Shown here piece by piece: positions 15,767 through 40,380 of a DNA stretch of 64,000 bases. Below the pieces are notes generated by a model. It was given only the letters and a program-made list of their open reading frames with translations. It searched no databases and had not been told where the DNA came from. A program made the position numbers and the translations under genes. Every line of letters begins with the position of its first letter. Position 1 is the first letter of the stretch. Source of the DNA: an uncultured bacterium (GTDB lineage: Bacteria > Patescibacteriota > JACMRA01). The DNA is taken from NCBI GenBank assembly GCA_963784355.1, contig CAWAQU010000006.1, positions 14,517 to 78,516 on the forward strand, in the 5' to 3' direction.

Positions 15767-15778
15767 TTATACGAAGTC
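15767..15778 (-). repeat. dif-arm copy 1 (GACTTCGTATAA on minus strand)
   Basis: Exact 12-mer in the xth-pgi gap; minus strand reads ACTTCGTATAA-TAAAAA-TTATTAAAATT. Confidence 0.85.
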
Positions 15779-15781
15779 AAT

Positions 15782-17032
15782 ATGCTTAAAGTAAATTTTC
15801 AAAATATACACGGTTTAACAGATCAAAATTCTATCTCAAAAGAGAGTTTATTGCAGGCTAGAAGTAAAATGGACGACCTGTATAATCAAATTTTAAACCA
15901 CAAACAAGGTTTTTTAGATTTACCCAATGCTTCCACAGAGGAGATTAAAACATTTACTCAACAGGTTACCAGCAAGTATAAAAATATTGTAATTTTGGGT
16001 ATTGGTGGGTCAATGCTTGGTCCAAAATGTATTCTAGATGCTCTCTATACATATAAAGATGGTCTTAAAGTCTACTGTTTAGATAATATTGATCCGGATC
16101 AGATTAGTATAATGGAATCTAGAATCGATCTCAAAGACACACTATTTTTAGTTCAAACTAAATCAGGTACTACTCCGGAAACTATTGCCCAGTATCTTTA
16201 TTTTAAAAAAAAAGTCGAAGCGGAAAATTTAGATTTCAGAAATCACTTTGTATTTGTAACAGATCCTGAAAAAGGTTATCTTAGGAACATAGCTAATCAA
16301 GAACAAGTTCCATGTTTTGAAATTCCACAGAACGTTGGTGGAAGATTTAGCGTACTTACACCTGTAGGCTTGCTCGTTGCTTCTCTGGTCGGTATTAATA
16401 TTGACGAGATTTTAAGCGGAGCTAAATACAGTACTGAGAATTTACTCAATGATGCCTATGATTTTGCGTATATCAACTACGAGTTAAGCGCCAAAGGAAA
16501 AAATGTTCATGTGATCATGCCGTACGCAACTAAATTGAAAACTTTTTCTGAATGGTGTGTGCAGTTGATAAGTGAAAGCATAGGTAAAAAAAGAAGTGTT
16601 GAAGGTAACATAGATAATGTAGGAGTTACACCATTGCCTGCTGTTGGAGCTACCGATCAGCACTCTCAATTGCAATTATTTGCCGAAGGTCCTAATGATA
16701 AATTAATTACTTTTATAGAAGTTGAGAAATTTGACACAACTGTTGCAATTCCTGCCAATTCTGAAAGTAGTTTAAGTTATTTAAATAACCATAGTTTCAA
16801 TGATTTAATCAAGGCTGAATTTTATGGAACTAGAGAAAGCCTAACTGAAGCAGACAGACCAAATATAACTATATCAATTGAAAAGCTGAATGGAAAGAGT
16901 CTGGGAGCTTTATTCATGTTTTTTGAAGTATATACTGCTTTTTTTGGTGAAATGTTAGGAGTAAATACCTTTAATCAACCCGGGGTAGAAAGAAGCAAAG
17001 TATTGGCCAGAGAAAATATCTTAAAATTCTAA
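15782..17032 (+). CDS. pgi: Glucose-6-phosphate isomerase
   Basis: GIGGS, KSGTT, VGGRFSVL, QLISESIGK, DQHSQLQL, FNQPGVE. Confidence 0.96.
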   Translation: MLKVNFQNIHGLTDQNSISKESLLQARSKMDDLYNQILNHKQGFLDLPNASTEEIKTFTQQVTSKYKNIVILGIGGSMLGPKCILDALYTYKDGLKVYCLDNIDPDQISIMESRIDLKDTLFLVQTKSGTTPETIAQYLYFKKKVEAENLDFRNHFVFVTDPEKGYLRNIANQEQVPCFEIPQNVGGRFSVLTPVGLLVASLVGINIDEILSGAKYSTENLLNDAYDFAYINYELSAKGKNVHVIMPYATKLKTFSEWCVQLISESIGKKRSVEGNIDNVGVTPLPAVGATDQHSQLQLFAEGPNDKLITFIEVEKFDTTVAIPANSESSLSYLNNHSFNDLIKAEFYGTRESLTEADRPNITISIEKLNGKSLGALFMFFEVYTAFFGEMLGVNTFNQPGVERSKVLARENILKF

Positions 17033-17053
17033 TCATAAATAATAAAATATAAA

Positions 17054-17551
17054 ATGCACTTTGGTTTATTGCCTAATATATTAGGTTTCTCGGCTCTAAT
17101 TCTCTATATACTAACTCTAATTCCTGGCTTATCCAGAGTTGCGTTGACCGATTTTAGGCGAACCAAGTTTGTGCTATTCTTGATGAAGTACCGTAGGGAA
17201 TTCGGTTTAGCAACTTTTGCTGTGGCCTTAGCACATGGTATATTGATTGGTATTGAGCGAAACTTGAATTTTTTGGAGTTAGGTACGATTTTTAAGTATG
17301 TTCAGGGTATTACTGCCATGATAATATTGATACTTCTAGCACTTACTTCAAATGACTTTAGTGTGAAAAAAATGAAGCGCAACTGGAAAAGGCTGCATTC
17401 TCTTACTTATTTACTACTTTTTATTTTACCCTGGCACATTGTTGATAAAATGAATGGTCACTGGAGCGTTTTTACACCTTTAGCTTTAGGATTGTTGCTT
17501 ATAACTTTGTATTTCTTTGCGGTGAGAATATTTAAGTTGTTGAGAAAATAG
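17054..17551 (+). CDS. Ferric reductase-like transmembrane (MsrQ/YedZ-like) heme protein
   Basis: RREFGL...ALAHG, LTSND, WKRLHSLTY...WH with heme-ligating His. Confidence 0.8.
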   Translation: MHFGLLPNILGFSALILYILTLIPGLSRVALTDFRRTKFVLFLMKYRREFGLATFAVALAHGILIGIERNLNFLELGTIFKYVQGITAMIILILLALTSNDFSVKKMKRNWKRLHSLTYLLLFILPWHIVDKMNGHWSVFTPLALGLLLITLYFFAVRIFKLLRK

Positions 17552-17727
17552 TATACTAACTTCATTTAAATAACCGCATTGTCTACAAATATAGGGATTT
17601 GATTTAATTATCTTATTCCTATTTTTTTTGGCTCGAATTAAGAGATATTACCAAATAAATACTGTTTGACTTTAACAAAAAAGTGTGCTATAGAATTAAT
17701 ACCAATCAAGTTAATTTGAGTAATAAT

Positions 17728-20272
17728 ATGAGCGCTATAGGCAAAATAATAAATCAATCTTTTTCAAAGTATTTCAACATCTTTCTGAGTTTAGCGTTGT
17801 TTTGCAGTATTTTTTCTGTATTACATGTAAATTCACAAACTATTCCGGCACCTGCAGAGCCAAACTGTCAGACCGTGAGTACAAACCCAGCTTTTAATCC
17901 ATATCCAATTACAACAAGACTCAGTGCGCCTGATATTATTTCAGGGGATTGTAAGGACATGCCGCTTATAAGCTTTTTCCCTATTGATTTTAGAAATAAC
18001 AACCCTAGAGAAAAAACGATAGTACAAGGACAGGACGTTAGCTTCCAACTATATTACATCAATGGTGCAAGGCCAGATGGTAGCGGAAATCCTAAAATTG
18101 AGAATCCTGTAGTAAAAATGGAGCTGATTAAGGAAAGCAACACTAAATATCGTGTTAGAGCTGTCTTATCAGGTAACAACGTTACTACTACTACTTCTGC
18201 TGATAAAGGTGGTGATTTAATTATCAATACGCCTGCAAATACAACTTTTAAAATAATGGGTAGAGATACTAGACACTATAATGATGCTATTGAGAGAAAA
18301 TATCAAGTAGAGACAGGGCAAAATTCACAACTATACGATTTTATTCAAGATAATTCGAACGGAAATACAATATCAAACCCTATTTGGTCTCGTTTTGAAG
18401 GTGTAAATTTACCAAGCACTTCAGGATTTCAAATTAAACCAAATTTAGAAGCAGGACTTTTAGGGTATGGATATATTCTTACTTCTATTACTGCTGAAGC
18501 ACCTGCACCTCAGCCCCCAACTCCTCCAGTTACCCCAGAAAATTTACCTCCTTCTTTACCAGGCGAAGAAATTACAGTAGTTAGAGGACAGAACGGTTCA
18601 TTCCAGAGATTAAATGGTACAGATCAAGACAATAATTACCCCCTTACCTACGATTTATCTCAATTACCAGCAAATTGTAGACAGACTAGTACTGGTACAG
18701 GAAGTAATGGTCCTGGTAGAACTGGTCCCGTGATCACTTGTTCAACTGATGCTAATACACCTACAAGATTTCAATTTATAATTACTCCAATTGATTCAAA
18801 AGGACTTAGAGGTACTCCAGGTACATTTATAGTAAATGTTATTGAACCAAAAATGACATCTATAAAGCAATGTTTCGTAAAAGGAACTAATAATCCATGT
18901 GCCTCTACTACATTAAAACCAGGAGATGATGTAACTTATAAAGTAACTGTTAATAGCACTGGTACATACAAATTGACCAATCTAAGAATCACTGACACCT
19001 ACGACAAAACTAGATTAAATACTATTACCAACATTAGTGATAACGGTACTTTAGGAGATGGTACAATAAACTGGAGTCTTGGTGATTTAGCTATTGGAGC
19101 TTCTAAGTCTGTCACATTTGATGCTAAAATTTCCAACAATGTACAAAATGGTGATATTGTTTTAAATAGAGCTGTAATCAAAGCAGACAACTTACCTGAT
19201 CAAAATGTAAGTGTGCAATTCCCTATCGCAATTGGAAATATTATTGCAGTAAAAGAGTGTTTCGTAAAAGGAACCAACACGCCTTGTGCTTCTGCCGAAT
19301 TGAAACCTGGTAATGAAGTAACTTACAAAATAACTGTAAAAAATACAACTCAAACTACCGTAAAAAATCTAAGAATCACTGACACCTACGACAAAACTAG
19401 ATTAAATACTATTACCAACATTAGTGATAACGGTACTTTAGGAGATGGTACAATAAACTGGAGTCTTGGTGATTTAGCCGGAAATGCAACTAAAACAGTT
19501 AATTTCAACGCTAAAATTACAGATGCTGCAAAATCCGGTGATGTAATTGTAAATATTGCTAAAATTGTAGCTGAGGGTATTCCTGAAATTACAGTACAAG
19601 TGCAGTTCCCTGTTGTTACAGATGAACCTCTTTTATCAACTTCTAATAAAGAATGTTTTAGACAATCTACAAATACAGCATGTAACCAAGCAAACCTAAA
19701 GCCTGGTGATAAAGTAACTTATAAGATTAATGTTAAAAATACAGGTAAAGGTATTGCAAAAAATCTAAGAATCACTGACACCTACGACAAAACTAGACTA
19801 AACGGTATCACAAATCTTAATCCACAAGGTCAAGTAAACACCGATCAAGGAACTATTACTTGGAGTATTGGTGATCTTACTGCAGGTCAAACATCTACAT
19901 TAGTATTTGATGCTACTATTACAAATGCAATTGCTAATGGTGATATTATTATTAACTCAGCTGTAATCAAAGCAGACAACTTACCTGATCAAAATGTAAG
20001 TGTGCAATTTGCTGTAACTTTACCTGGAATGCCACCTATTGTTACTCCACCTACACCAAATCTCCCAAATACACCTGCAAACCCAACCTTACCACAAAAT
20101 CTAACTCCTAATCCGGTTGCCCCCTGCAGTTAACTTTACCCCTAGAACTGGAGGTGTAAGTACTGCCGCTTTACTCTCAGGGTTGGTTATGTTTGGCTTT
20201 GGTTTTCTATACAAGAAAAATTCTAAATCTAGAGGAAGTTTTATTCCAAAAAGAAATAGTGAAATGAGATAA
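17728..20272 (+). CDS. Secreted surface protein with three DUF11-like Ig repeats and a TPRTG-TM-basic tail; +1 frameshift at C5 run 20120-20124
   Basis: N-terminal hydrophobic signal; 3x K..PGD.VTY.I.V.N...ITD...INW.LGDL; shifted frame continues PAVNFTPRTGGVSTAALLSGLVMFGFGFLYKKNSKSR to TAA 20270-20272. Confidence 0.78.
18979..19478 (+). repeat. 113-bp exact intragenic direct repeat (18979-19091 and 19366-19478)
   Basis: Identical DNA encoding NLRITDTYDKTRLNTITNISDNGTLGDGTINWSLGDL. Confidence 0.9.
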
Positions 20273-20322
20273 AATTCCAACTCAAAACGATAGAATTAAA
20301 GATAATAAAGCAAAGCGAATGG

Positions 20323-20347
20323 TCCCGGGTAACTCCGGGATTTTTTT
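20323..20347 (+). terminator. Intrinsic terminator
   Basis: TCCCGG-GTAACT-CCGGGA-T7. Confidence 0.8.
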
Positions 20348-20364
20348 AAAGCAAGATTAATCAT

Positions 20365-20736
20365 ATGTTAGAATACCCATCTTTTCCTAACAGACCAAAA
20401 AAAGAAAAATCTGAATTTACTCCAAAGCAATTATTCATTGAGCTCTTAGTTAATGAAAAAATTCACTCAGACGACTATAATCTAGAATTAGATATTCTTT
20501 TGCAGAAATCATCAGTAGAGTGCCAAGAGAAGACAATGCTATATATTACACTTTTAAATTTAGATATTGAATTAATAACCTCTAACCTAATTAAACGACG
20601 AATTGTATTTCTTAATGCAATGTTAGGAATTTTTAAAGGGGTTAAAGCAGCAAAATTGACAAAAGCGGACTCTTATAATTTAAGACATCAGCTCATTTTA
20701 GAAATAAATAAAATAATAGACCAAAGTAAATTGTAA
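20365..20736 (+). CDS. Hypothetical protein
   Basis: 123-aa ORF, no motif recognised. Confidence 0.55.
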   Translation: MLEYPSFPNRPKKEKSEFTPKQLFIELLVNEKIHSDDYNLELDILLQKSSVECQEKTMLYITLLNLDIELITSNLIKRRIVFLNAMLGIFKGVKAAKLTKADSYNLRHQLILEINKIIDQSKL

Positions 20737-20884
20737 ATTTATGTAAGTATTTTTGAGTTGTAAGTAGCCTCAAACTTATTATAATTTAATGATCTGACCA
20801 TGTACGAAATCTAGTTTTCTTATTTACAGGTAAATATATTTTAATTTCATCAAATTAAAGTTAAAACTTAGGTTAAAATTTGCC

Positions 20885-21382
20885 TTATCTTAATATCATT
20901 TTAATGCCTTTTTTATGTGAGTTTTCCGAGTTTAAATACTCAAATCCAAACTTCAAGTAAAATTTATCAGCAACAGTTGTTTCAAGAAAAATTGGTTTAT
21001 TCTGGATTTTATACTTTAGTATTGCATTCATTAAATTTTGCCCGATACTAATATTTTGCCAACTAGGGTGAACGAACATAGATTTTAACTCCATACTTTC
21101 TTCTTTATTAACTAAAAAAACACTTCCTACTGCTTCATTATTTATTTTGGCAACTAAAGCTAAACTTTGTTTTTTGGCTAAAATTTGTTTTAATTCAGTT
21201 AGCTTTTTTGACCAGTTTATATTATTTATTTGCTCTTCGGTAGCTTGGTATTCGTCATTAACATAATTTTTGATATAACAAAGCCTCTGAATTTCTACTA
21301 TCTGCTCAAGATCAGTAATATCTGCATTAGAAAAAGATAGGTTTTGCAGTAACAAGATTTTGTCTTCGGATAAAGAGTTCAT
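20885..21382 (-). CDS. GNAT family N-acetyltransferase
   Basis: MFVHPSWQNISIGQNLM acetyl-CoA motif, FYLKFGF. Confidence 0.82.
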   Translation of the reverse strand: MNSLSEDKILLLQNLSFSNADITDLEQIVEIQRLCYIKNYVNDEYQATEEQINNINWSKKLTELKQILAKKQSLALVAKINNEAVGSVFLVNKEESMELKSMFVHPSWQNISIGQNLMNAILKYKIQNKPIFLETTVADKFYLKFGFEYLNSENSHKKGIKMILR

Positions 21383-21421
21383 AGTACGTTTTGCTTCTAT
21401 GTGTTATTAGAACAAACTTTG

Positions 21422-23438: not shown

Positions 23439-23462
23439 ATTGGAATGATATAGTTACCTAAT

Positions 23463-23489
23463 TAAAAAACAAACTCCCTGGAAGGGAGC
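23463..23489 (-). terminator. Attenuator terminator in lysS leader
   Basis: GCTCCC-TTCCA-GGGAGT-TTGTTTTTT on the minus strand between the leader ORF and lysS ATG. Confidence 0.8.
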
Positions 23490-23516
23490 ATAAAAATAAA
23501 TTAACCGAGCCCCCTT

Positions 23517-23567
23517 TTACTGAGAAGTTTTTTTAGAATTTTTCTTGGAGAAGACTACGAGTTTCAT
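23517..23567 (-). CDS. Putative lysS leader peptide MKLVVFSKKNSKKTSQ
   Basis: 16 codons, 5 Lys; ATG lies 7 nt after TATAAT of a TTGACA-N18-TATAAT promoter; followed by antiterminator and terminator. Confidence 0.72.
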   Translation of the reverse strand: MKLVVFSKKNSKKTSQ

Positions 23568-23574
23568 GACTACA

Positions 23575-23604
23575 ATTATAGGACGATTAAGATATAGCTG
23601 TCAA
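23575..23604 (-). promoter_or_regulatory. sigma70 promoter of the lysS leader
   Basis: Minus strand TTGACA-gctatatcttaatcgtcc-TATAAT. Confidence 0.8.
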
Positions 23605-23775
23605 GGATAGGGGATACTGCTATTAAAATTTACTATAAATAATTAATACGCATAAGATTTTACAGTCTTACAAACTTCAGCTATACTATCTCAGCACTAA
23701 ATAAAATACGAATATAAAAATATAAAGTAGCTTCTGTCACACAAAAGTACTATATTATTGAATAATCTATCCAAA

Positions 23776-25003: not shown

Positions 25004-25015
25004 TTATACGAAGTC
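25004..25015 (-). repeat. dif-arm copy 2
   Basis: Minus strand GACTTCGTATAA-TGTATA-TTTGATGAAAT, intergenic. Confidence 0.85.
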
Positions 25016-25079: not shown

Positions 25080-25622
25080 ATGAAAGAACTAAAACTCAAT
25101 AGGAGTCTTTTATCAGGCTATTATGTATCTATTTTAATTTCTTTCTTTTTGTTTCAGCTAATTAAAGAATCTATTGTAAATCTTTGGACGACTTGGTTTA
25201 TTAGTTTCTTGGCTGCCGCATTTAAAATTAATGCTACAACGAGTGGGGCAACTTGGTTATCTTTAGTATTTATCTGTTTTATTGTTGTATTTGTTATTAG
25301 GCGCTTTGTGGTTGAGGTCCTAAATTTATATTCAGATAATGAGTCTTATAAACCATGGGAAAGTGGTGTTTTACTTATTTTAGTGGCCGGTTACTTTATC
25401 TATGTAGTAAACAAAGTTTTTAGCCAGCCGATGCCTTCTGCATGGTTTCCAGATTTTTTAGTAAAATTGTTAGGTGGAAATGGGGAAGGTATAGAAGTTG
25501 TTGCTTTATCAGTAGAGGAAAAAAATGCTTGGACTATTGTGCCCTGGCTTTGGACTATTGGCCCTGTAGCCTTTATGTATTTTCGTACAATTGCTTCAAA
25601 ATTTAAGTCAGGTGAAAAGTAA
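25080..25622 (+). CDS. Hypothetical membrane protein
   Basis: 180-aa ORF with 4-5 TM segments. Confidence 0.7.
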   Translation: MKELKLNRSLLSGYYVSILISFFLFQLIKESIVNLWTTWFISFLAAAFKINATTSGATWLSLVFICFIVVFVIRRFVVEVLNLYSDNESYKPWESGVLLILVAGYFIYVVNKVFSQPMPSAWFPDFLVKLLGGNGEGIEVVALSVEEKNAWTIVPWLWTIGPVAFMYFRTIASKFKSGEK

Positions 25623-27929: not shown

Positions 27930-28976
27930 TTAAAATCCCAATAAATTAATCTCCGTTTCCAAATCAAGGTTATATTTTATTTTAGCTTCAGATTTTACAG
28001 CGTTGATTAGTTTCATCACATCTTCAGCTTTTCCCTCACCCTTATTTTCAATGAAATTGGCGTGTTTATCTGAAATCATGACTTCACCCTGAGTTTTTCC
28101 TTTCCAATTAAATTCTTTATCTACGATATAACCGACGCTTGGGGTAGGGAACCCTAATTCAGCTTGTTTTTCCAATGGTATATTTTTAAATGTGCATCCT
28201 GCGGTTCTACGTGGTTGAATTCTTTTGCGTTTCATCCATTCATTTGCTACAAATTTCGCTTTTTCTATATCTCCTTTAAATAAATTGAGTGTGACTGAAA
28301 CTACTATAATATTTTTATTGTCTCTTAAAACACTTTGATCATATCCGAAATTAAAATCTTTAAATAAAAATTCTTGTAACTTGCCATCGACTAGGACTTC
28401 TGCAGAATAAAAATTGTCAGAAAAATGTTTGGTGCCTCCATGGATATTATTAAATAAGGCTCCTCCAATTGTACCTGGAATTCCGGCAAAGAATTGCAAT
28501 CCGCTTATTTCATTTTTTAGTGTCCAAGCAATTGCCCAAGATAAATCTACACCTGAATCAAATTTCACTTTAGTTCTTTGGCCAGATTCTTCATAATCTA
28601 GATCTTTAAATGAGTAAAAACTTCCATCTTCTTCACCGTGTCTTGGTGGAATCCAAGGATTGTAAGCCTCTGCATCGACAGCACTGATTTTAGCTGTCTC
28701 AGTATGTTCTAAAAGCTCAATGTTTTTGGATTTATTTATAATAACCAATCCTTTTATACCACTATCTGAGATAAGTACATTTGAGCCACCACCAAGGATA
28801 GTGTAGGGGATATCATTCTCAATTGATATATTTACAAGTTCGATTAAATCTTTAGAGCTAGTTAATTCAACTAAATATTCTGCTGGGCCACCGATTTTCC
28901 AAGTGGTGTAGGGGGCTAATGGGCAACTTAGTTTTGGATTGAACTTAGATATTTGATTTAAAAAGATTGTGTTCAT
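27930..28976 (-). CDS. murB: UDP-N-acetylenolpyruvoylglucosamine reductase
   Basis: TWKIGGPA, LGGGSN, GIPGTIGGA, AGCTFKN, SDKHANF, LETE. Confidence 0.94.
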   Translation of the reverse strand: MNTIFLNQISKFNPKLSCPLAPYTTWKIGGPAEYLVELTSSKDLIELVNISIENDIPYTILGGGSNVLISDSGIKGLVIINKSKNIELLEHTETAKISAVDAEAYNPWIPPRHGEEDGSFYSFKDLDYEESGQRTKVKFDSGVDLSWAIAWTLKNEISGLQFFAGIPGTIGGALFNNIHGGTKHFSDNFYSAEVLVDGKLQEFLFKDFNFGYDQSVLRDNKNIIVVSVTLNLFKGDIEKAKFVANEWMKRKRIQPRRTAGCTFKNIPLEKQAELGFPTPSVGYIVDKEFNWKGKTQGEVMISDKHANFIENKGEGKAEDVMKLINAVKSEAKIKYNLDLETEINLLGF

Positions 28977-29087
28977 AGGGTTGAATTTTAGTCATTTACT
29001 AGCTTTTGTCAAGTAAGCCTTATATCATATATGATATATTATTGTATTTTTGACATTAAAGGTACTAGCTGCAATTATATGATTATA

Positions 29088-29990
29088 ATGAACTATTATA
29101 TAGTTTTACCGAGTAAAAAGATACCGCAGCCCTATTTAACTTATAAGTATACTGAAGAGTTGGAAGTAGGTAGAATAATTGAAGTAAACGTTAGAAATGC
29201 TAGTGTGTGGGCTGTGGTACTAAAAAAAGTGGATGTAAGTAGCTTAAAATTTGATGAATCCAAAGTTAAAGAGATTGAAAATAAATTACCTGTAATATTG
29301 GGGGAGCAAAATATAAAATTTTTATATGCCTTTAGTCAAAATACTTTTAACACATTAAATACAGTTTTAAATTCATTTTTACAACCATTTAAATTATTAA
29401 CAAAAAAGCAATGGTCTGAACTTAGTTCGAAACAAGTGGAATTGGCTCAAAATACCCCCCCGGCTTCTGGAAGTGGTTTCAATGTATTATTTGATCTAAA
29501 TATATATACCACGTTACGTATAATATACATTATACGAAGTCATTTAAATACAACAAAAAAAAGAATACTACTAGTCTTCCCTGAAACAAAACACATCAAT
29601 CGATTTTTAGATGAACTTACTAATCAACAAGATTTTACTGAAATAAAGAAAAAGCTCGACATTTTTATATATACAGGCTCTCCGGATAAAGAATCAAAGA
29701 AAACTGTGTGGAGTATTTTAAATCAAAATTCTAAGACTACTATTATACTTTCAACTCGCAGCGGACTCTTTCTACCATTTAATAAGTTGGATGAAATAAT
29801 ATTAGTTGATGAAGCAAATTCATTTCATATTCAAGACCAAAATCAGATTTATTTTGATACGCGTGACGTTATTTACCTAATGGCCCAGAGTTTTCAGTCC
29901 AAATTGACCTTCTTAAGTACCCTACCCTCAATTAGGCTCTATAATTTCTATCAGAGCGAAGTTTTTACTCAGTTTAAGGAAAAGTATTGA
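29088..29990 (+). CDS. priA: PriA N-terminal part (3'-DNA-binding domain + degenerate helicase lobe)
   Basis: LTYKY..ELEVGRIIEV, LLVFPE, STRSGLFLPF..L..IILVDEA, YFDTRDV, FLSTLPS; no intact Walker A. Confidence 0.78.
   Translation: MNYYIVLPSKKIPQPYLTYKYTEELEVGRIIEVNVRNASVWAVVLKKVDVSSLKFDESKVKEIENKLPVILGEQNIKFLYAFSQNTFNTLNTVLNSFLQPFKLLTKKQWSELSSKQVELAQNTPPASGSGFNVLFDLNIYTTLRIIYIIRSHLNTTKKRILLVFPETKHINRFLDELTNQQDFTEIKKKLDIFIYTGSPDKESKKTVWSILNQNSKTTIILSTRSGLFLPFNKLDEIILVDEANSFHIQDQNQIYFDTRDVIYLMAQSFQSKLTFLSTLPSIRLYNFYQSEVFTQFKEKY
29513..29540. other. Chromosomal dif-like Xer recombination site embedded in priA
   Basis: GTTACGTATAA-TATACA-TTATACGAAGT (11-6-11); minus-strand spacer TGTATA equals the E. 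coli dif spacer; KOPS converge on it; G/C skew flips. Confidence 0.8.
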
Positions 29991-31030
29991 TGTCTCAAAA
30001 AAAAGCTTTATTTATACATTGTAGACGTGGACTTTATCAGCTAACCAAATGCAAAAGTTGTGGTCATAGTTTTTCTTGTGATAATTGTGATGCTAAACTG
30101 GTTACTTATAAAACAGGTGGTAGCAGTCTTGAACTTCTGTGTCACCAGTGCCAAACTTATTATAAGTATCCAAATCATTGTCCTAAGTGTAACTCAAAGG
30201 AAATATTTTCTAAATATGGTGGTATTGAAGAATTAGCGCAGTTATTGGAAAAAGAAGATTATAAACTTATTAGACTTGATCAATCAAAAAACTTCCCTAC
30301 AAATCATGCAAATGAAATAGAATCAAATATTGAGGGTAAAAATATACAAATTTCTTTTAGACAAAATAAAAATGACCTAGTAAGCCCACATTTAACCAGT
30401 AATTTAGAAGAATATGATATTTACCTACATACAAGAATATTTGACCCGCTTTTACCCTACTCTATTTTTGATAAAATAGTATTTGTACAAGCTGAGAATT
30501 TACTTGCTAGCCCTGATTATCTAGTAAGCGAAGAAATAATCAAAGCAACTGCTGAAATTTTACTTCAATGCAATACAACTAATGAAATCATATTTGATAC
30601 AAATGCCCCTGAATTGGAATTATTTGAAGAGTTAAAAAAACTCCACTACGAGTATCCTGAAAATCACAAGGTCTATGAGTGGTATTTAGAATTTTTGGAA
30701 AAAGAGAAATCAAACAGGCAAAAATACGGTTTTCCACCATTCAAGAATTTACTTTTGATTACTACTCAGGAAAAAGATATTCAAAGCTCCAATAAAAAAC
30801 TAGAAACAATTACTAATTATCTGGATAAGATGAGAGGTGAGTTACCTGAAGTAAGTTGGTCTACCCCCTACCCTGCGAGGTTTTTAAAACGAAAAAATAT
30901 GTATTCACATCACATTTTGCTACGTTTCCCGCGCCAATATGAACATTTCAATCTTTTAAGAAAGGAAATCGGAGAAATTGTAGAGTTATATAGAGTACAA
31001 GTAAGGCTTAACCCCAGACATTTGTTTTAG
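29990..31030 (+). CDS. priA: PriA C-terminal part (Cys-rich Zn region + CTD)
   Basis: RRG..CKSC..CDNC..CHQC..CPKC, GIEEL, R.KYGFPPF; ATG overlaps the upstream TGA (TGATG). Confidence 0.82.
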   Translation: MSQKKALFIHCRRGLYQLTKCKSCGHSFSCDNCDAKLVTYKTGGSSLELLCHQCQTYYKYPNHCPKCNSKEIFSKYGGIEELAQLLEKEDYKLIRLDQSKNFPTNHANEIESNIEGKNIQISFRQNKNDLVSPHLTSNLEEYDIYLHTRIFDPLLPYSIFDKIVFVQAENLLASPDYLVSEEIIKATAEILLQCNTTNEIIFDTNAPELELFEELKKLHYEYPENHKVYEWYLEFLEKEKSNRQKYGFPPFKNLLLITTQEKDIQSSNKKLETITNYLDKMRGELPEVSWSTPYPARFLKRKNMYSHHILLRFPRQYEHFNLLRKEIGEIVELYRVQVRLNPRHLF

Positions 31031-31099: not shown

Positions 31100-31111
31100 G
31101 ACTTCGTATAA
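31100..31111 (+). repeat. dif-arm copy 4
   Basis: GACTTCGTATAA-TGTATT, intergenic. Confidence 0.85.
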
Positions 31112-31146: not shown

Positions 31147-31500
31147 TTAGTCGTGGAAACTTGTAATTTCAAACTCATTCCCTTCGATATCAACGCAAGA
31201 GACAGAATTATATTCATCATAATCAACATCTAAAATTTTTCCGCCTAAGTTTATTACTTTTCCTTTTAAAATCACTAATTCTGTGCTATTAAATTCAAAA
31301 ACTGGAACACAATTTGATCCAATCCATTTTTCATACTCTAAAGAAATAAAAGATAAATTTATATTACCAAAATCAAATTCTACCCATTCTTTAGTGTCTT
31401 TTTCAGGCTTTGGAGAAATATTAAACAGCTCTGAATATAAAGTTTTTAATTTAGTTATATCTTTGCTTTTAAAATATACTGTTCTGATTTTTAAGGTCAT
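31147..31500 (-). CDS. VOC/glyoxalase-like protein
   Basis: 117 aa; LYSELFN..P, WVEF, LGGKI, DIEGNEFEI pattern. Confidence 0.75.
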   Translation of the reverse strand: MTLKIRTVYFKSKDITKLKTLYSELFNISPKPEKDTKEWVEFDFGNINLSFISLEYEKWIGSNCVPVFEFNSTELVILKGKVINLGGKILDVDYDEYNSVSCVDIEGNEFEITSFHD

Positions 31501-31559: not shown

Positions 31560-31571
31560 GACTTCGTATAA
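31560..31571 (+). repeat. dif-arm copy 5
   Basis: GACTTCGTATAA-TAATTT, intergenic. Confidence 0.85.
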
Positions 31572-31617: not shown

Positions 31618-32073
31618 ATGTCATATTACCTTTATTCCAAGCCATTTACTAAGTTACCTAACTGGACTGAGCTATACACGGCCAAAATAATATCACTACC
31701 CAATAATCACTTAGTTAAAATACACATCGGTCAAAACTTACATTATATCACTTCGGATAATGATAACCTAAACTTTACGGAAATACTTACGGAAAATCTA
31801 CCAATTAAGTTAGTACCAGATTCTTTAGAGTTTGAGCCAATTATTGATTACACAAATCAAACAGAGAATTATAAAATAAGTGTTAAAAAGTTCGATGAAA
31901 ACGAGATTGATGAATTCCTCAAAACTCCTGATTGTTTATTTTATTTATTTACAAATGGTGACTGGAAAATTATCAGATGGGAAATAGATAAGCAGCAATT
32001 GATATTCAAAACTCTACAAACTCTAGATGAAAACCAATTCACTATTTTTACCGAAACAAGCTATAATTTTTAA
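31618..32073 (+). CDS. Hypothetical protein (likely ATG 31618)
   Basis: Track start at 31558 is the TTG of the repeat; a TTGACA at about 31583 precedes ATG 31618. Confidence 0.6.
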   Translation: MSYYLYSKPFTKLPNWTELYTAKIISLPNNHLVKIHIGQNLHYITSDNDNLNFTEILTENLPIKLVPDSLEFEPIIDYTNQTENYKISVKKFDENEIDEFLKTPDCLFYLFTNGDWKIIRWEIDKQQLIFKTLQTLDENQFTIFTETSYNF

Positions 32074-32080
32074 ATCTTTT

Positions 32081-33898: not shown

Positions 33899-33938
33899 AT
33901 ACAATATAATTTGCAAATTTAGAATTATGAGCTTTTCA

Positions 33939-34487
33939 TTAGATCAAAAGTAAGATGAGACCTAGTATAAAACCGCCTACCAATCCACCCAAGTGGCCAA
34001 AATTATCAATTCTGGGATCGCTGAGGCCAATACCAAAGATAAATAAAATATTAATCATTACACTTCCCAAAGTGGAATAATCCCTAGTAATAATTGCATA
34101 GGCCAATACTGCTCCAACCAAACCCATAATAGATCCACTAGCACCTAAGCTAGGCACATTCGGATTAAACAGAAAAGAGAATAATGATCCAACAATACCA
34201 GAAACTATATAAATTAACAAAAACTTAAAACTGTCTCTATAGATTAAAAGTACTACCGGCCCTACATTATATAGAGATATCATGTTAAATAACAAATGTA
34301 AGAAGCTACCATGTAAAAAAGTGGAAGTCAAAAACCTGTAGTAATCACCACTTATAATATCAGGATTGCTTTTCCACCCCAAGCTAATAAAACTAGTAAA
34401 ACTATCCCTACCAAACCTGCCAAAATTGAAAACAAAGGGTATGGCAAATACTACAATATTTATTATAATTAAAATCAAAAATACCAT
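33939..34487 (-). CDS. Rhomboid family intramembrane serine protease
   Basis: FLHGSFLHLLFNM, GASG, GHLGG. Confidence 0.93.
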   Translation of the reverse strand: MVFLILIIINIVVFAIPFVFNFGRFGRDSFTSFISLGWKSNPDIISGDYYRFLTSTFLHGSFLHLLFNMISLYNVGPVVLLIYRDSFKFLLIYIVSGIVGSLFSFLFNPNVPSLGASGSIMGLVGAVLAYAIITRDYSTLGSVMINILFIFGIGLSDPRIDNFGHLGGLVGGFILGLILLLI

Positions 34488-34488
34488 A

Positions 34489-35100
34489 CTACTCTTTTTT
34501 TAGGTTTTCAGGTATTATAATTGCGAGTAAAATACCAAACAACCAGCCCCCTAATATTGGTAAAGCTTGAAATTGCAGTGGCCTCTCAACATTTACTACT
34601 GCCTCAGTAAAATTTTTCATCGGAGTGACTCTAAACCCGATTTGTCTAGAATCGTTCCATTCATCAACCAACTTCAAATATGCTGATTTGGCACCATTTA
34701 AGAATTTATTAGCATCTTCATTAGATTGAGCCTGATAAGTTAAATTTACAAACCCTGCAGCACCAGCACCAATAACATAGAAAGGTGTTTTTTCGCTATA
34801 ATTCGCAATTTTAAGTCCAGCATTTTTTGCAACTGTATCTTGAATATCAATATTTTTAAATCTGGATTCTAGATAACTACTAAAATCTTTATTGGCAGTT
34901 AGATACGCAAGAGATTTATCATTGCTATTTTGGTTTATGACCAAATAAGATTGATCATTTAAGTTCAGACCAAATGTAAGACTAGCTTGGTATGAATTTG
35001 TTTTTGCCCAAGGAAATAAAAGTAGTGTAAATAGTAGAGTACTTAATAGTATTACCCACCAACGTTTAAAAATACGCCTACGTAGTTGATCAATCGTCAT
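34489..35100 (-). CDS. Two-TM protein resembling Wzz/CpsC chain-length determinant
   Basis: KRWWVILL N-terminal TM, Y.AS, C-terminal P...GG..G TM. Confidence 0.45.
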   Translation of the reverse strand: MTIDQLRRRIFKRWWVILLSTLLFTLLLFPWAKTNSYQASLTFGLNLNDQSYLVINQNSNDKSLAYLTANKDFSSYLESRFKNIDIQDTVAKNAGLKIANYSEKTPFYVIGAGAAGFVNLTYQAQSNEDANKFLNGAKSAYLKLVDEWNDSRQIGFRVTPMKNFTEAVVNVERPLQFQALPILGGWLFGILLAIIIPENLKKE

Positions 35101-35122
35101 ATATATTAAAATAATTTATATA

Positions 35123-38100
35123 TTATCTATCAAGACTCCCCTCATCAACAGATAAAGCAAGCTGTTCATCCACTTTTCTATCATATTGATCAGCAGTTTC
35201 TGTAACTTGCGCATTTACTTTAATACCTAATGCAGTCAACTCATTAGCTAATACAATAAATGAACTAGGTAAATTAGGACTGAATATTGGTTTTTCTCTT
35301 ACTATTGCTTCAAATGCTGCATCCCTACCTTTTACATCATCAGATTTTATAGTCAACATTTCTTGTAAAGCATAAGCCGCGCCATAAGCTTCTAATGCCC
35401 ACACCTCCATTTCTCCAAATCTTTGCCCTCCTGAATGGCTTCTTCCTCCGAGAGGTTGCTGTGTAACCAGTGAGTAAGGCCCTGTAGAACGAGTGTGCAC
35501 CTTGTCATCAACTAAATGGTGAAGCTTGTTTAGATACAAATACCCTACTACGATAGGTCTATCATATTTATTTCCTGTTTGTCCATCCCACAAATCAACC
35601 TTACCATCTTCTCTAAATCCAGCTTGTATCAACTGTTCTCTTACAATATCCACGGAAATTTCGTTTAAAGGTTGGGTTATGGCCATCAAACCTTCTTTTT
35701 TACATATTAATCCCAAGTGCGTCTCTAAAAGCTGCCCTAGATTCATACGTCCAATAACACCAAGCGGATTAAGCACAACATCAATAGGCACTCCATCTGC
35801 TGTATATGGCATATCATTTACAGGAAGTACGACTGAAACTACTCCTTTATTTCCATGTCTTCCGGCCATTTTATCACCAGGTTTGATTTTTCTGGTAGTA
35901 GCTAACCAAATATGCACTCTTTGAATAACGTCATTAGGTAAAGGATCACCTTTGCTTCTGTTAAATACTCTAATTGAAACTACCTTACCATTTAAACCGT
36001 GCTCCAAATATAATGAGCTATCTTTTACATCTCTGGAATATTCACCAAATAATACGCGGATTAATTTATCTTCAGGAGAAAGATCAACCTCTCCTTTTGG
36101 AGTAATTTTACCTACTAAAATGTCGCCTGATTCTACATAAGCACCTTGATGGATAATACCATCTTTATCCAACTTTCTTAGCTTATCACTTGCAACGTTA
36201 GGAATATCTCTAGTAATTTCTTCATTTCCTAATCTTGTTTCGTGCACATCACAAGTCAATTGGTAGATATGTGTTGAAGTAAATTTATCGTCTGCAACAA
36301 GCCTTTCAGATAAAATAATAGCATCTTCAAAATTATAACCTTTGAATGGCATAAATGCAACACGTACATTTTGTCCAATTGCAAATTCTCCATTATATAT
36401 ACCAAATCCTTCTACTAAAATGTCGCCTTTAACAACTTTTTCTCCCGGTCTTACCCTTACTTTTTGATTAATTGTAGAATTTCCGTTTGCAGGTAAAAAT
36501 TTAAGTGGTTTATAAAAATATTTTTCTTTAGTTTTAGCATCTTGTATAGTTACTTCAGTGCTATCAGCCTTCAAAACTACTCCATCACATTCAGAAATAA
36601 ACATGTAACCACTATAATCCGCAGCAATTTTCTCAAATCCAGTTGCAACGATTGGTTGTTCCGGTCTTACCAAAGGAAGAGCTTGCCCTTGTTGATTTGT
36701 TCCCATGAGTACACGTGTACCGTCAGTTTGAGCTACAAAAGGAACCATACAAGTAGAAAGACTAAAAATTTGATTGGACGCCACATCCATAAACTCTACC
36801 TCTTCTACGCTTACTTGAACAGGATTTCCTTCTTTTCTAGCACCGACTGTTTCAATTTGAATATGACCCAATTCATCAACCTGGTTAATGTTTTCTGCAA
36901 TTATATTTCTCATTTCTTCTTCACTACTAAACCAAACTATTTCATTTGATACATGCTTTCCTACCTTAACATCATAATTCGGATCTACTGAGTTCAATTT
37001 TTCCCAAACATCTTGAGTTACTAATTGACCTACTTTAAACTGTCTTTTACCATCAATTACTATATCTTCTTGGATTATTCTAGAAATCAAATTTTTGTCA
37101 GAAGCTTTAAGACTATTTTTAATTCTAAGGTATGGAGTTTCTAAAAAGCCCATTTTATTGATTCTGGAATAAATTGCCGCGTGTAAATTTAAACCAAAAG
37201 CAGGGCCTTCAGGAGTATTTACAGGACAAATTCTACCATAGTAACTAGGTTGTACGTCACGTACTTCAAAACCAGCTCTTTCTCTTGTCAAACCTCCTGG
37301 CCCGGCACATGTCATAAACTGTCTCTGATCCATTTCAGACAATAGATTAGTTTGATCCATGAATCTGGACAATTGTGAAGTATTGAAGAAATCATCGACC
37401 ATTGCAGCAAGTGGTCTCATATTTACCAGTTGAGCAGGAGTAAAGTTCTGATCTTCGTTAAGTGTCATTTTATCTTTTGTATTTCTAACAACTCTACTTA
37501 ATCCGGCTTTAAATGTATTTCCAAGCCATTCACCCACACCTCTTACTCTTCTGTTGCTTAGTGAGTCAATATTATCAGGCTCCACTTTTTCTACTGCCAT
37601 CCTTACCAATTCTTTCATCGCAGCTGTAATCTCTCCAACTGACAAAGTTTTCTTATAATCACTACCTGCTTCAGGTTTAGATTTAAAATCAAGTCTTGTA
37701 TCAAATTTATATCTACCAACTCCTCCAAAATCATACTTTGCACCGTCTTCAAATAATGAAACTAAGTATTTCCTACCTTGTTCAATTGAAACAATATCTC
37801 CAGGACGTATCTTTTTGTAAATTGAATTTACGGCATCTTCAATACCAAAAGCAGAATCTTTTTCTAAAGTAGCTTGAATATAGCTAATCTTTTCATCTGT
37901 ATCTACATCTTTAAACAAACTAATGATTTCAGCTTCTTTTGTAATACCAAATAATTTCAACAGTTGCGTTGCAGGGAATTTTTTCTTTCGATCTATTCTT
38001 GCATAAATAACTCCATCAGCACCAACTTCCAAATCTACCCAGATTCCACGGCTTGGAATAATTCTAGCTGTGTAAACAAATAAACCTTTTTCCAGTTCTC

Positions 38101-38533
38101 TGGTATATAAAAGACCTGGTGATTTTACAAGCTGACTAACAACTATTTTCTGCACTCCATTAATAATAAAGTTACCTTTCCTTGTCATTAAAGGAATATT
38201 TCCTACAAAAACTCTTTGATTCTTTTTTTCCTTAGTGACTAGATTTTCTACGGTTACGCTTGCATATAAAGGTGCAGAATAGGTAGTTCCTTCCAACAAT
38301 GCTTTATACTCATCCATTGCAGGATCAGCCTCTAAATAAAACTCTGGCCCTATATTGATTTGCCATCTACCTGAGCTGGTATCACTAATTGGGCTAAATT
38401 CTTGAAATATCTTTGATAGATCCTGAGTCCAAAAATTTTGGTAGGAATCTTTTTGCATTGAATTTAAATTGGGAACAGGAAAAACATTTTGCTTTACACC
38501 GAAGCTACTACGCTGAACTTTTTTGATGGCCAT
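35123..38533 (-). CDS. rpoB: RNA polymerase beta subunit
   Basis: GPGGLTRERAGFEVRDV, YGRICP..TPEG, GYNFEDAI, GDKMAGRHGNKGV, GGQRFGEMEVWALEAYGAA. Confidence 0.99.
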   Translation of the reverse strand: MAIKKVQRSSFGVKQNVFPVPNLNSMQKDSYQNFWTQDLSKIFQEFSPISDTSSGRWQINIGPEFYLEADPAMDEYKALLEGTTYSAPLYASVTVENLVTKEKKNQRVFVGNIPLMTRKGNFIINGVQKIVVSQLVKSPGLLYTRELEKGLFVYTARIIPSRGIWVDLEVGADGVIYARIDRKKKFPATQLLKLFGITKEAEIISLFKDVDTDEKISYIQATLEKDSAFGIEDAVNSIYKKIRPGDIVSIEQGRKYLVSLFEDGAKYDFGGVGRYKFDTRLDFKSKPEAGSDYKKTLSVGEITAAMKELVRMAVEKVEPDNIDSLSNRRVRGVGEWLGNTFKAGLSRVVRNTKDKMTLNEDQNFTPAQLVNMRPLAAMVDDFFNTSQLSRFMDQTNLLSEMDQRQFMTCAGPGGLTRERAGFEVRDVQPSYYGRICPVNTPEGPAFGLNLHAAIYSRINKMGFLETPYLRIKNSLKASDKNLISRIIQEDIVIDGKRQFKVGQLVTQDVWEKLNSVDPNYDVKVGKHVSNEIVWFSSEEEMRNIIAENINQVDELGHIQIETVGARKEGNPVQVSVEEVEFMDVASNQIFSLSTCMVPFVAQTDGTRVLMGTNQQGQALPLVRPEQPIVATGFEKIAADYSGYMFISECDGVVLKADSTEVTIQDAKTKEKYFYKPLKFLPANGNSTINQKVRVRPGEKVVKGDILVEGFGIYNGEFAIGQNVRVAFMPFKGYNFEDAIILSERLVADDKFTSTHIYQLTCDVHETRLGNEEITRDIPNVASDKLRKLDKDGIIHQGAYVESGDILVGKITPKGEVDLSPEDKLIRVLFGEYSRDVKDSSLYLEHGLNGKVVSIRVFNRSKGDPLPNDVIQRVHIWLATTRKIKPGDKMAGRHGNKGVVSVVLPVNDMPYTADGVPIDVVLNPLGVIGRMNLGQLLETHLGLICKKEGLMAITQPLNEISVDIVREQLIQAGFREDGKVDLWDGQTGNKYDRPIVVGYLYLNKLHHLVDDKVHTRSTGPYSLVTQQPLGGRSHSGGQRFGEMEVWALEAYGAAYALQEMLTIKSDDVKGRDAAFEAIVREKPIFSPNLPSSFIVLANELTALGIKVNAQVTETADQYDRKVDEQLALSVDEGSLDR

Positions 38534-38631
38534 AAATATATGTAATAACGATTGAAATCCTCTTTTTTGTCAAGCTGGCTCTTTTTTATTCAAAAAATCT
38601 TGTTTGGAAAGAAATACATCTTACTCACCAA

Positions 38632-40329
38632 TTACAATTTTGCACTTTTCAATTTTAAATACAAATTTTTTAGGTTTTCATCCAAAGCAAAACTTATTAA
38701 TTTACTATCCAAATAATGAATGACCGTACTCCACATACTCTGTCTTTGATTGAGATCAAGTAGCTCTTTTTTTTCATCAATAATCATCGCCATAATTTCA
38801 GTATTTTCCTCCAGATAATTACCAAAGCTTGAATAGTTATCCAATTGCGGCAATAAAGGTTTCAATAATTCAAAAGAGTGAGCAATATTTTCGATAAATT
38901 CCGGCTGTATACTCAAAGTTGCCGCCAGTAAATTTTCCCAGGATAAATAAACTGACTGTTCCAAACTCAATCCCTTATCATTATCTTCAGTATTATCCGG
39001 CTTTATTTCTAATGTATTATCTTTTACTAGGCTATCAAGCACGCTAAAACTTACCCCACTTATTTCACTTAATTTTTTTAAATAATGTTCTCTGGAAACA
39101 GGATCTAAAACTTCCAGCAAATCAACTACCTTATGTATGGCTTCTTTTTGTGTATTTAAATCTCCACTTTTCAATTCCATATTAAGTCTTGATAACATCC
39201 AGGTTAGATATTCTGTAATATTTAATTCTTTAGGATTTTCAATTGATAAAAATTCATCCAAATCTTTATACTGAGTCGGAATCACAACTTTTTGTACATT
39301 AAAACCCAACATTGTTGCCGCTTTAAACAGTTTATCAGAAGAAATAATCCCGGCCTCATCATTATCAAAAGCAACCTGAATATTTTTAGTCACATTTTTC
39401 AGAATTTTCAGCTGATTTTCCGTGAAAGAAGTACCTTGACTAGCTAAAGTATTTTTAAAACCTGCCTTAAAGCTCCCTACTACATCCATATTTCCTTCTA
39501 CAATAATTGCAGCTTTAGTTTGTAAAATATGGGTTCGAGCCAGATGCAGTCCAAACCACAAATCACTTTTATTAAACCAGATACTTTGAGGCGAATTTAA
39601 ATATTTTGGTCTTTCAGTTTTATCATATGGCAACACCCTACCTGTAAAGCCTACTACCCTACCCTGACGGTCAAAAACTGGTATCATCAACCTATCTGAA
39701 AATTTGTCGCTGAGTTTTGCATTTTGATTTTCTTGCTCTTTTTCTTTAAACACACCAATGTCCAGCATTAACTCAGTATTCAAATTGTATTTTTGAGCCA
39801 AACTAAGTAACATATTACCTCTCGGAGCATAGCCTAGCTTAAATTCATCAATGATTTCCTGTGTCAAACCTCTTTCCAGACAATATTTAGTTATAGGATT
39901 TTCTCTATCTTGTAAGACTCTTAAAAGTATTTTGTAATATACCTCACTCGTCCATTCAAGTAATTTTAGTCCTTGTTCAAACTTACCAATACTAACTTTT
40001 TCTTGTTCAGGATCACTATTCTCATGATAGTCACTGTATTCTTTAGTTTTTTTCAACTCAACTCCAGCTTTTTTGGCAAGTTTAGTTAGTACCTCTTTTT
40101 TTGTAATATTCTCAATTTGCGTTACAAAAGCAAAAATATCACCCCCTGCCCCACAACCAAAGCAATGCCAAATTTTTTTTTCCGAATTAATCACTAGCGA
40201 CGGACTTTTTTCACGATGAAATGGACACAACGCTTTATAAACACTGCCTTGAGTTTGCACAGGAATATACTCTTGAATCACATCTTCAATAGCCAATCTA
40301 TCTTTTACCTCCTGCCAAACTGAATACAT
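38632..40329 (-). CDS. dnaG: DNA primase
   Basis: CPFHREKSPS...CFGC Zn ribbon, PKYLNSP, VEGNMDV, FDNDEAG TOPRIM. Confidence 0.97.
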   Translation of the reverse strand: MYSVWQEVKDRLAIEDVIQEYIPVQTQGSVYKALCPFHREKSPSLVINSEKKIWHCFGCGAGGDIFAFVTQIENITKKEVLTKLAKKAGVELKKTKEYSDYHENSDPEQEKVSIGKFEQGLKLLEWTSEVYYKILLRVLQDRENPITKYCLERGLTQEIIDEFKLGYAPRGNMLLSLAQKYNLNTELMLDIGVFKEKEQENQNAKLSDKFSDRLMIPVFDRQGRVVGFTGRVLPYDKTERPKYLNSPQSIWFNKSDLWFGLHLARTHILQTKAAIIVEGNMDVVGSFKAGFKNTLASQGTSFTENQLKILKNVTKNIQVAFDNDEAGIISSDKLFKAATMLGFNVQKVVIPTQYKDLDEFLSIENPKELNITEYLTWMLSRLNMELKSGDLNTQKEAIHKVVDLLEVLDPVSREHYLKKLSEISGVSFSVLDSLVKDNTLEIKPDNTEDNDKGLSLEQSVYLSWENLLAATLSIQPEFIENIAHSFELLKPLLPQLDNYSSFGNYLEENTEIMAMIIDEKKELLDLNQRQSMWSTVIHYLDSKLISFALDENLKNLYLKLKSAKL

Positions 40330-40368
40330 GATCTAATATAAATATACTTTTCATTTTTTGGCAATATT

Positions 40369-40380
40369 GACTTCGTATAA
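40369..40380 (+). repeat. dif-arm copy 6
   Basis: GACTTCGTATAA-CATGTTAAAG in the femX-dnaG gap. Confidence 0.85.

Follow-up and report, generated by a model that had tools for sequence, protein, structure and literature searches.

A polar array of isolated copies of a predicted dif arm around the terminus in a family of Patescibacteria, and its possible role as an Xer-based one-way fence

In this study, we analysed a 64-kb window (the whole stretch of DNA at G000:C6:14517-78516, G000 being the source genome) in which a 12-mer, GACTTCGTATAA, recurs on both sides of a palindrome that lies inside a split priA-like gene. We suggest that the palindrome is the dif site of a family of Patescibacteria (family f1) and that the other copies are single arms of dif that point towards it from either side of the terminus. 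The G000 assembly (1.14 Mb, 13 contigs, 33% G+C) reads well in code 11, and homologues of the window proteins are labelled 'Patescibacteria group bacterium', in agreement with the initial annotation of the window as part of a genome of the candidate phyla radiation (CPR).

The 12-mer is present in six exact copies in the window against 0.33 expected by chance, and six copies were reached in none of 100 shuffles. The copies at 15767, 25004 and 29530 are on the minus strand and those at 31100, 31560 and 40369 on the plus strand, just as the initial annotation had listed them, and the 11-bp core with one mismatch that it had placed on the plus strand at 31750 was also recovered. That a partner arm accompanies only the copy at 29530, and that the other five copies are intergenic, had likewise been proposed, and both points hold. 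When the six copies are aligned, only the T that follows the motif is conserved beyond it, and the other five copies have no conserved second arm. These five lie between open reading frames (ORFs), the copy at 31560 overlapping just one doubtful ORF with a TTG start. The palindrome, its host gene and the copies of the motif are arranged as follows.

15767-15778, minus strand: predicted isolated dif half-site, 13.8 kb left of dif; the plus strand reads TTATACGAAGTC, towards dif; without second arm; flanked by an Exo_endo_phos gene (14894-15757) and a PGI gene (15782-17032), stopping 3 nt short of the ATG of the latter
25004-25015, minus strand: predicted isolated dif half-site, 4.5 kb left of dif; dif spacer TGTATA kept, second arm degenerate; intergenic, 64 nt upstream of the ORF at 25080-25622
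29031-29990, plus strand: priA-like N-terminal ORF (priA-N), 319 residues; PriA_3primeBD, E 9e-06; contains dif in frame
29513-29540, unstranded: predicted dif, an imperfect 11-6-11 palindrome, GTTACGTATAA-TATACA-TTATACGAAGT, whose right arm is the 12-mer copy at 29530-29541
29987-31030, plus strand: separate priA-like C-terminal ORF (priA-C), 347 residues; PriA_C, E 1.9e-07; cysteine-rich zinc motif visible
31100-31111, plus strand: predicted isolated dif half-site, 1.6 kb right of dif; dif-like spacer TGTATT; intergenic, between priA-C and the 3' end of the ORF at 31147-31500 (minus strand)
31560-31571, plus strand: predicted isolated dif half-site, 2.0 kb to the right of dif; upstream of that minus-strand ORF, 59 nt from its ATG (31500)
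31750-31760 (C6 46266), plus strand: 11-bp core with one mismatch, ACTTCGGATAA, in the right-hand orientation
40369-40380, plus strand: predicted isolated dif half-site, 10.8 kb to the right of dif; intergenic, after femAB (40392-41543, minus strand) and 39 nt upstream of the dnaG start (38632-40329, minus strand)

Judged by three sequence criteria, namely its form, its position at the terminus and the convergence of FtsK-orienting polar sequences (KOPS) upon it, the palindrome at 29513-29540 is the predicted dif of the family, and we refer to it as dif below. Its arms are symmetric at 8 of 11 positions, and the longer form on the plus strand is CGTTACGTATAA-TATACA-TTATACGAAGTC at 29512-29541. 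Within priA-N, dif is translated as ..TLRIIYIIRS... The same palindrome is found at the same place of priA-N in nine relatives (the complete relative G018 and contigs of eight others) and in G025, a genome of the sister family, with the residue context ..LRI[IM]Y[IL]IR.. common to these genomes. In G018, dif is located at 914,114-914,140 in a priA region that spans 911772-914745, and in G025 it is found at ~11785 of G025:C21 inside an intact priA ORF of 814 residues. With up to two mismatches allowed, a pattern search detected a single palindrome of this type in each of 19 of the 26 family genomes, and four of the seven genomes that it missed have a slightly more diverged palindrome inside the priA-N homologue. 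When 300 genomes of the phylum were scanned for the palindrome, matches outside family f1 stayed at the level of the reversed-pattern control. No report on a dif site in Patescibacteria was found in the open-access literature.

The host gene has features of its own. The N- and C-terminal parts of priA are separate ORFs in family f1, with another ORF between them in G018. The Walker A lysine of priA is not recognisable, and the priA-N match of six relatives contains one in-frame stop. The small ORFs beside dif in the window (117, 171, 180 and 395 residues) have no counterpart near dif in nine relatives, so there appears to be no conserved accessory gene.

The position of the terminus could be defined in G018, which is a single contig of 1,272,640 bp. 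Its cumulative GC skew has a minimum at 241-300 kb and a maximum plateau at 887-922 kb, and dif (914 kb) lies on this plateau, antipodal to the minimum. A de novo search for skewed words in G018 returned GGGTAGGG, with 41 occurrences on the leading strand and none on the lagging strand, and we take this octamer to match the KOPS consensus. G018 contains 94 sites of the form GGGNAGGG, which change polarity at two places, one between 911 and 921 kb and the other between 188 and 341 kb. Both G000 and G018 have a gene for FtsK with a gamma domain. In the window, GGGNAGGG occurs ten times (2.28 expected), twice on the plus strand to the left of 29.5 kb and eight times on the minus strand to the right:

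7566-7573, plus strand: KOPS-like octamer GGGTAGGG, left replichore
28142-28149, plus strand: KOPS-like octamer GGGTAGGG, the last before dif
29920-29927, minus strand: KOPS-like octamer, the first after dif, polarity reversed
30866, 39657, 40144, 42453, 49380, 60963 and 62353, all minus strand: further KOPS-like octamers right of dif

The flip in the orientation of the 12-mer across the centre of the window, which the initial annotation had pointed out, coincides with the flip of these octamers between 28142 (plus) and 29920 (minus). Because GGGNAGGG fills the role of KOPS in these genomes, the half-site is not their KOPS.

In G018, the exact 11-mer occurs ten times, with six copies on the minus strand at 659-896 kb, four on the plus strand at 947-1165 kb and none elsewhere. 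All 15 copies of the pattern AYTTCGTATAA lie within 260 kb of dif, a zone that makes up 41% of the genome, and all 15 read TTATACGAART on the leading strand towards dif; the chance values are ~1.5e-6 for place and 3e-5 for polarity. Their distances from dif range from 7 to 255 kb (7, 18, 18, 31, 33, 60, 65, 69 kb and onwards), and they are denser near dif. Clustering at the terminus with strand polarity, which the initial annotation had predicted for the genome and its relatives, is thus what we observed: the copies are not scattered without strand bias, they are strictly polar and they are restricted to the terminus-proximal ~40% of the chromosome. The one-mismatch copy at 31750 could be there by chance, because one-mismatch copies are not all polar.

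The fragmented source genome gives a similar picture. There are 20 exact copies of the 12-mer in G000 on 8 of the 13 contigs, none being found on C4, C5, C9, C10 and C12, and 17 of the 19 copies outside dif have the polarity of the local GGGNAGGG octamers. The two exceptions are located at the border of a segment of C3, probably a mobile element, in which the polarity of the octamers is inverted. Orientation is uniform within each contig except C6, which has a single flip. A majority test on the nearest three KOPS misjudges sites adjacent to dif and contigs with one octamer, and such cases were re-read by hand.

That the array is a property of the family came from the relatives. The 12-mer is present in 21 of 24 relatives of family f1 and in none of 16 genomes of other families, the reversed-pattern control giving 0-2 matches per genome. 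The 18 family contigs with at least two 12-mers contain 41 adjacent pairs, of which 35 have the same orientation, six switch from minus to plus and none switches from plus to minus, counts that are not independent because the genomes are kin. On each of these contigs, orientation switches at most once, at dif. In stretches from seven relatives, all 24 outlying copies of the 9-mer TTCGTATAA are on the minus strand to the left and on the plus strand to the right of the palindrome in priA-N. The consensus of 82 sites consists of one 13-bp arm, T-G-A-C-TTCGTATAA, followed by T in G000; neither a spacer nor a second arm is conserved. The 9-mer itself is about as frequent genome-wide as the reversed control, and the signal lies in the 11- to 12-mer, its place and its polarity. 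Our results therefore support, at the level of sequence, the view that the copies represent single dif arms that are concentrated round the terminus and have a polarity towards dif. Of the terminus-organising system proposed in the initial annotation, the array of isolated, dif-pointing, terminus-concentrated arms stands (in G000, G018 and the terminus contigs of seven relatives), but the unloading of SMC (structural maintenance of chromosomes) complexes at these sites does not, as discussed below.

The sites do not follow particular genes. Among 13 host genes of G000 with a tblastn counterpart in G018, only priA, which holds dif, and one other share a site at the same residue, and several of the counterparts, which in G018 are 500-700 kb away from dif, are without a site in that genome. 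From genus to genus the positions of the sites change, which argues that the sites track chromosomal place and not genes. We suggest that selection acts on chromosomal position, so that sites would arise in genes near the terminus and be lost elsewhere. In G000, 17 of 26 exact 11-mers (ACTTCGTATAA) lie inside long ORFs (crude ORF calls), in all three reading frames, and the signal should therefore be at the DNA level and no protein motif; in G018, 9 of 10 lie inside long ORFs. The sense strand of the gene reads TTATACGAAGT for 15 of the 17 intragenic copies in G000. When intragenic exact 11-mers are considered, the sense strand reads TTATAC.. in 23 of 26 as compared with a share of 0.55-0.585 for neighbours with two to three mismatches, the probability of this bias being 6e-4 at a baseline of 0.57 and 0.009 at 0.66. 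Leading-strand genes account for 0.625 of the coding bases in the terminus zone of G018. The bias hints that head-on transcription is avoided at half-sites, as might be expected if bound arms were polar obstacles.

Both G000 and G018 encode a tyrosine recombinase of the Xer family. In G018 it is the only tyrosine recombinase, encoded by the sole PF00589 gene (883330-884475, 381 residues), and its orthologue in G000 (C4:15543-16622, 359 residues) is downstream of gatB. The protein has its best NCBIfam matches in XerC, XerA and XerD, and its scores are below every equivalog cut-off, with 198 against 335 for XerC, 194 against 220 for XerA and 186 against 330 for XerD. Of 22 family loci, 10 have a half-site with at most one mismatch 3-27 nt upstream of the ATG of xer, in either orientation and often in the spacer between the -35 and -10 elements. 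Two more loci have a half-site 78-82 nt upstream of xer, and another two have versions with two mismatches. In G018, the half-site fills the spacer between TTGACA and TAATTT, 20 nt before the ATG. To have an operator at its own promoter is typical of a DNA-binding protein, and the half-sites at xer promoters therefore suggest that Xer binds isolated half-sites. Together with their identity to the arm of dif, this makes the half-sites predicted Xer binding sites. An insertion of 40-70 residues in Xer varies within the family and does not track the array.

How an array of single arms could serve the terminus is suggested by its geometry. The 12-mer is the core of the predicted 13-bp recombinase-binding arm of the family's dif, and ~15-25 isolated arms are kept within ~250 kb on either side of dif with the same polarity as the KOPS-like octamers. 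As they have no partner arm, the isolated arms should be unable to recombine, and each would be held by one monomer of the single Xer-type recombinase of the lineage. In dif, each arm turns its TTATA end to the spacer (we call this side the inner face) and its GAAGTC end away from it, and the outlying arms all have the orientation of the far arm of dif. A motor heading to dif, be it KOPS-guided FtsK, the replisome or RNA polymerase in the host genes, would meet the inner face of the monomer, and a motor leaving dif would meet its outer face. According to the available passages of Graham et al. (2010), FtsK stops at XerCD-dif, and where a half-site carries just one XerD or Cre monomer, FtsK that arrives at the outer face is stopped ~5-fold better than FtsK that arrives at the inner face; the stop does not depend on the gamma domain (PMC2800217). 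Given this outer-face stop and the orientation of the arms, the geometry of the array would be that of a one-way fence that allows entry to the terminus region and stops exit. FtsK guided by KOPS would reach dif, and FtsK that overshoots or runs the wrong way would be halted. FtsK would be the most likely target of the fence, with terminus-overshooting forks as a possible second. We infer in this way that Xer occupies the arms, that occupied arms behave as roadblocks and that FtsK is the motor concerned. An Xer-based, FtsK-centred one-way fence around the terminus is our best reading of the sequences, held tentatively with a probability of about 0.42.

Several observations weigh against a one-way fence. 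Among the NCBIfam matches, and by score relative to cut-off, the Xer of these genomes is nearest to archaeal XerA, and XerA acts without FtsK. No half-site precedes xer in 8 of 22 loci, including that of G000 itself on C4. In genus g4 (two genomes), one anti-polar copy of TTCGTATAA is found on each side of dif within ~0.5 kb (G004:C41 19863-20621; G019:C4 42268-43060). The sites are sparse, at ~1 per 35 kb in a zone that reaches 250 kb from dif. The bias of the sense strand is modest once the excess of leading-strand genes is allowed for. The outer-face stop was measured with the FtsK of E. coli, XerD and Cre and not with a CPR Xer. Finally, priA of G025, in the sister family, contains the same dif, yet that genome has just four other copies of TTCGTATAA, which are scattered, and the array should therefore be dispensable for the function of Xer and dif. 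For the same reason, the array is best seen as an addition in family f1 and no by-product of dif.

We considered a replication fork trap as the foremost alternative, in which Xer-bound arms would act as Ter sites that forks can enter but not leave, so that termination is confined near dif. Two opposed groups of asymmetric sites flank the terminus over ~40% of the chromosome, in a layout like that described for Tus/ter and RTP/ter in the available part of one account (PMC13220808), and the innermost sites enclose dif, an arrangement that the passages at hand of another account describe for fork traps (PMC10331603). Neither Tus (PF05472) nor RTP (PF02334), which could do the job otherwise, was found in three genomes; the Tus model did match its control in E. 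coli and the RTP model its control in B. subtilis. In geometry, a fork trap would not differ from the one-way fence, and FtsK stops and a Ter-like fork trap are both compatible with our data. On the other hand, no report of a tyrosine recombinase arresting a replisome was found, and the polar stop described in the available passages concerns FtsK, a double-strand translocase (PMC2800217). The sister family, represented by G025, does without an array. Where fork traps are known, they are dispensable, as far as the cited account goes (PMC13220808), and selection for them should therefore be weak. A fork trap in place of an FtsK fence is thus unlikely in our view. It is somewhat less unlikely that the system is a third, independently evolved terminus trap of a CPR family in which no Smc, MukB, Tus or RTP was found; Xer would then double as a Tus-like polar barrier on ~15-25 arms and confine forks and/or FtsK around dif in priA.

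It is also conceivable, and quite doubtful, that the arms form a passive reservoir, which would hold Xer near dif or, with the operator at the xer promoter, buffer its free level by titration. Polarity would then be a mere constraint, for both polarity and the bias of the sense strand are equally expected if copies that block FtsK, forks or RNA polymerase were purged by selection. The half-site at the xer promoter and the rise of site density towards dif in G018 would fit a reservoir. Yet a reservoir does not account for the sites 150-250 kb from dif, nor does it explain why positions turn over while the number of sites and their zone stay. Moreover, the constraint itself presupposes that bound arms are polar roadblocks.

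The binding protein need not be Xer. Another dedicated, Tus-like protein that recognises a sequence like the dif arm could bind the arms, and the gain of such a factor could explain why the array is specific to family f1 although dif is the same in the sister family. We consider this improbable. The arm is identical to the consensus arm of dif and recurs in both orientations at the xer promoter, which points to the recombinase itself, and no candidate factor turned up.

The initial annotation had also proposed that the sites unload SMC complexes. By analogy with XerD in Bacillus subtilis, loop-extruding SMC complexes arriving from the origin would be released at the arms, and dif-like, non-recombining Xer sites at the terminus do answer the description of XerD-binding sites (XDS) given in the available passages of three reports (PMC11840125, PMC10945525, PMC11894783). 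The client of such sites was nevertheless not found. Matches to SMC_hinge and ScpA were absent from both G000 and G018, SMC_N matched only ORFs of at most 704 residues with no full-length Smc among them, the best score of the full-length Smc model TIGR02168 in five family genomes was 32.5 bits, where the cut-off is 567, and MukB was absent from the same number. The positive controls were matched, and G018 is a single contig. In all, no Smc, ScpA or MukB was found in the genomes searched (G000, G001, G008, G010, G018 and, for the sister family, G025), MksBEF or Wadjet-type complexes not having been searched for. Cells of this order may thus be without condensin altogether, with the same reservation for the MksBEF type. 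The loss of SMC is not correlated with the array, as G025 lacks both. With no Smc, ScpA or MukB found, we regard SMC unloading as very improbable and do not retain this part of the initial annotation.

Hardly tenable at all is a regulon or promoter element, or a set of scars left by mobile elements of the IMEX or pdif type that integrate through Xer: four of the six copies in the window lie upstream of co-oriented genes at a distance of 3-64 nt, TATAAT is part of the motif, the pair at 31100 and 31560 flanks a small non-conserved ORF and a probable mobile element on C3 has three copies beside a small recombinase gene, but most exact 11-mers lie inside long ORFs, the host genes are unrelated and the sites do not follow orthologues, neither the restriction to the terminus zone nor the flip at dif is expected, as a TATAAT the motif would point antisense to its host genes, and scars cannot arise inside conserved housekeeping genes. 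We also compared the sites with IMEX and pdif modules, which are flanked by full two-arm Xer sites, and rejected the match: the outlying sites are one-armed and mostly in housekeeping ORFs, the element on C3 being the exception.

Non-recombining Xer sites at the terminus are already a known kind. The XerD-binding XDS sites of B. subtilis, reportedly described by Karaboja et al. in 2021, are likewise dif-like sequences of the terminus. In the available passages of the reports on XDS cited above, these sites bind Xer without serving recombination and unload Smc-ScpAB. The array would resemble XDS in that its single arms within 260 kb of dif are predicted to be dif-like and non-recombining, but it differs in that no Smc, ScpA or MukB was found to serve as client, in that its sites are single arms with strict, KOPS-like polarity and in that it extends over ~40% of the chromosome. 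Tus/ter of E. coli and RTP/ter of B. subtilis share with the array the opposed groups of asymmetric sites, the placement of dif between the innermost ones and the enter-not-leave logic. In contrast to these, the array is made of dif arms, which a tyrosine recombinase would presumably bind, and no homologue of Tus or RTP was found. The array geometry matches the stop of FtsK at XerD and Cre half-sites, with the inner face to the origin and the outer face to dif; that stop was seen in vitro on an artificial substrate, and the available passages describe no natural array of half-sites (PMC2800217).

Like KOPS, the array has leading-strand polarity towards dif and flips at dif. KOPS are 8-mers, skewed and G-rich, that are read by FtsK gamma along the whole of both replichores, whereas the half-site is 11-13 bp long, several-fold rarer and found in the terminus zone only. 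As to the archaeal XerA, XerH and XerS systems, the array genomes are alike in having one Xer-type gene and a near-palindromic 11-6-11 dif, and the spacer TGTACC of dif in G018 and G025 is that of the dif of Thermococcus kodakarensis in the passages at hand (PMC11840125). They differ in that Xer is below every equivalog cut-off and dif is inside priA, and the available accounts of those systems report no extra half-sites. With MatP/matS, the array shares many short sites that are confined to the terminus and denser towards dif, but matS is palindromic and non-polar, and MatP acts on MukBEF. What would be new is that single dif arms form a strictly polar array, co-oriented with KOPS, in a lineage in which no condensin was found; among the matches listed from the open-access literature, we found nothing of this kind.

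Fork traps and terminus organisers are known from few lineages and rely on unrelated proteins (Tus, RTP, MatP and XerD/XDS). If the one-way fence is real, it would be another route to a directional terminus, built from a recombinase and copies of one arm of its own site, and found in an uncultured, genome-reduced lineage in which no condensin was detected. The one-sided stop of FtsK by a monomer on a half-site, seen in vitro, would then become a natural system open to testing. The sequence rules are clear, namely a 13-bp arm, KOPS polarity and a distance within ~250 kb of dif. For the annotation of family genomes, the half-site is a simple marker by which the terminus can be located and contigs put in order, and the GGGNAGGG octamers are useful for ordering and orienting contigs of this CPR family.

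A few further observations touch on the array and its surroundings. The half-sites at 31100 and 31560 form a direct pair around the 117-residue ORF (31147-31500, minus strand), which has no Pfam family, and direct pairs of half-sites 100-1500 bp apart are found near dif in G007, G016, G022 and G021 as well; such pairs may be small cassettes. On C3 of G000, a segment at ~14.2-22 kb contains small ORFs and encodes a ParA-like ATPase and a tyrosine recombinase of 200 residues that consists of the catalytic domain only. Immediately downstream of the gene for this recombinase there are three half-sites within 400 bp (15597, minus; 15869, minus; 15959, plus), and the GGGNAGGG polarity is inverted relative to the flanks. 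The segment is probably an integrated plasmid-like element. Also in G000, the end of C2 (21590-25469) repeats C4 14043-18106 (gatB, xer and pyruvate kinase) in inverted order, with xer and the kinase broken by stops, and may be a second copy in decay, or else a strain variant or a duplicate made in assembly.

A soil sequencing run contained 0.11 of the sampled words, and its contigs gave patchy cover with no joints or variants and were uninformative on recombination at half-sites. The only strong match to the DnaA family (PF00308) in G018 is a gene at 856615-857100, 58 kb from dif and ~550-600 kb from the origin indicated by GC skew and KOPS (~250-300 kb), and in G000 the DnaA family is represented by a weak match alone (E 7e-4).

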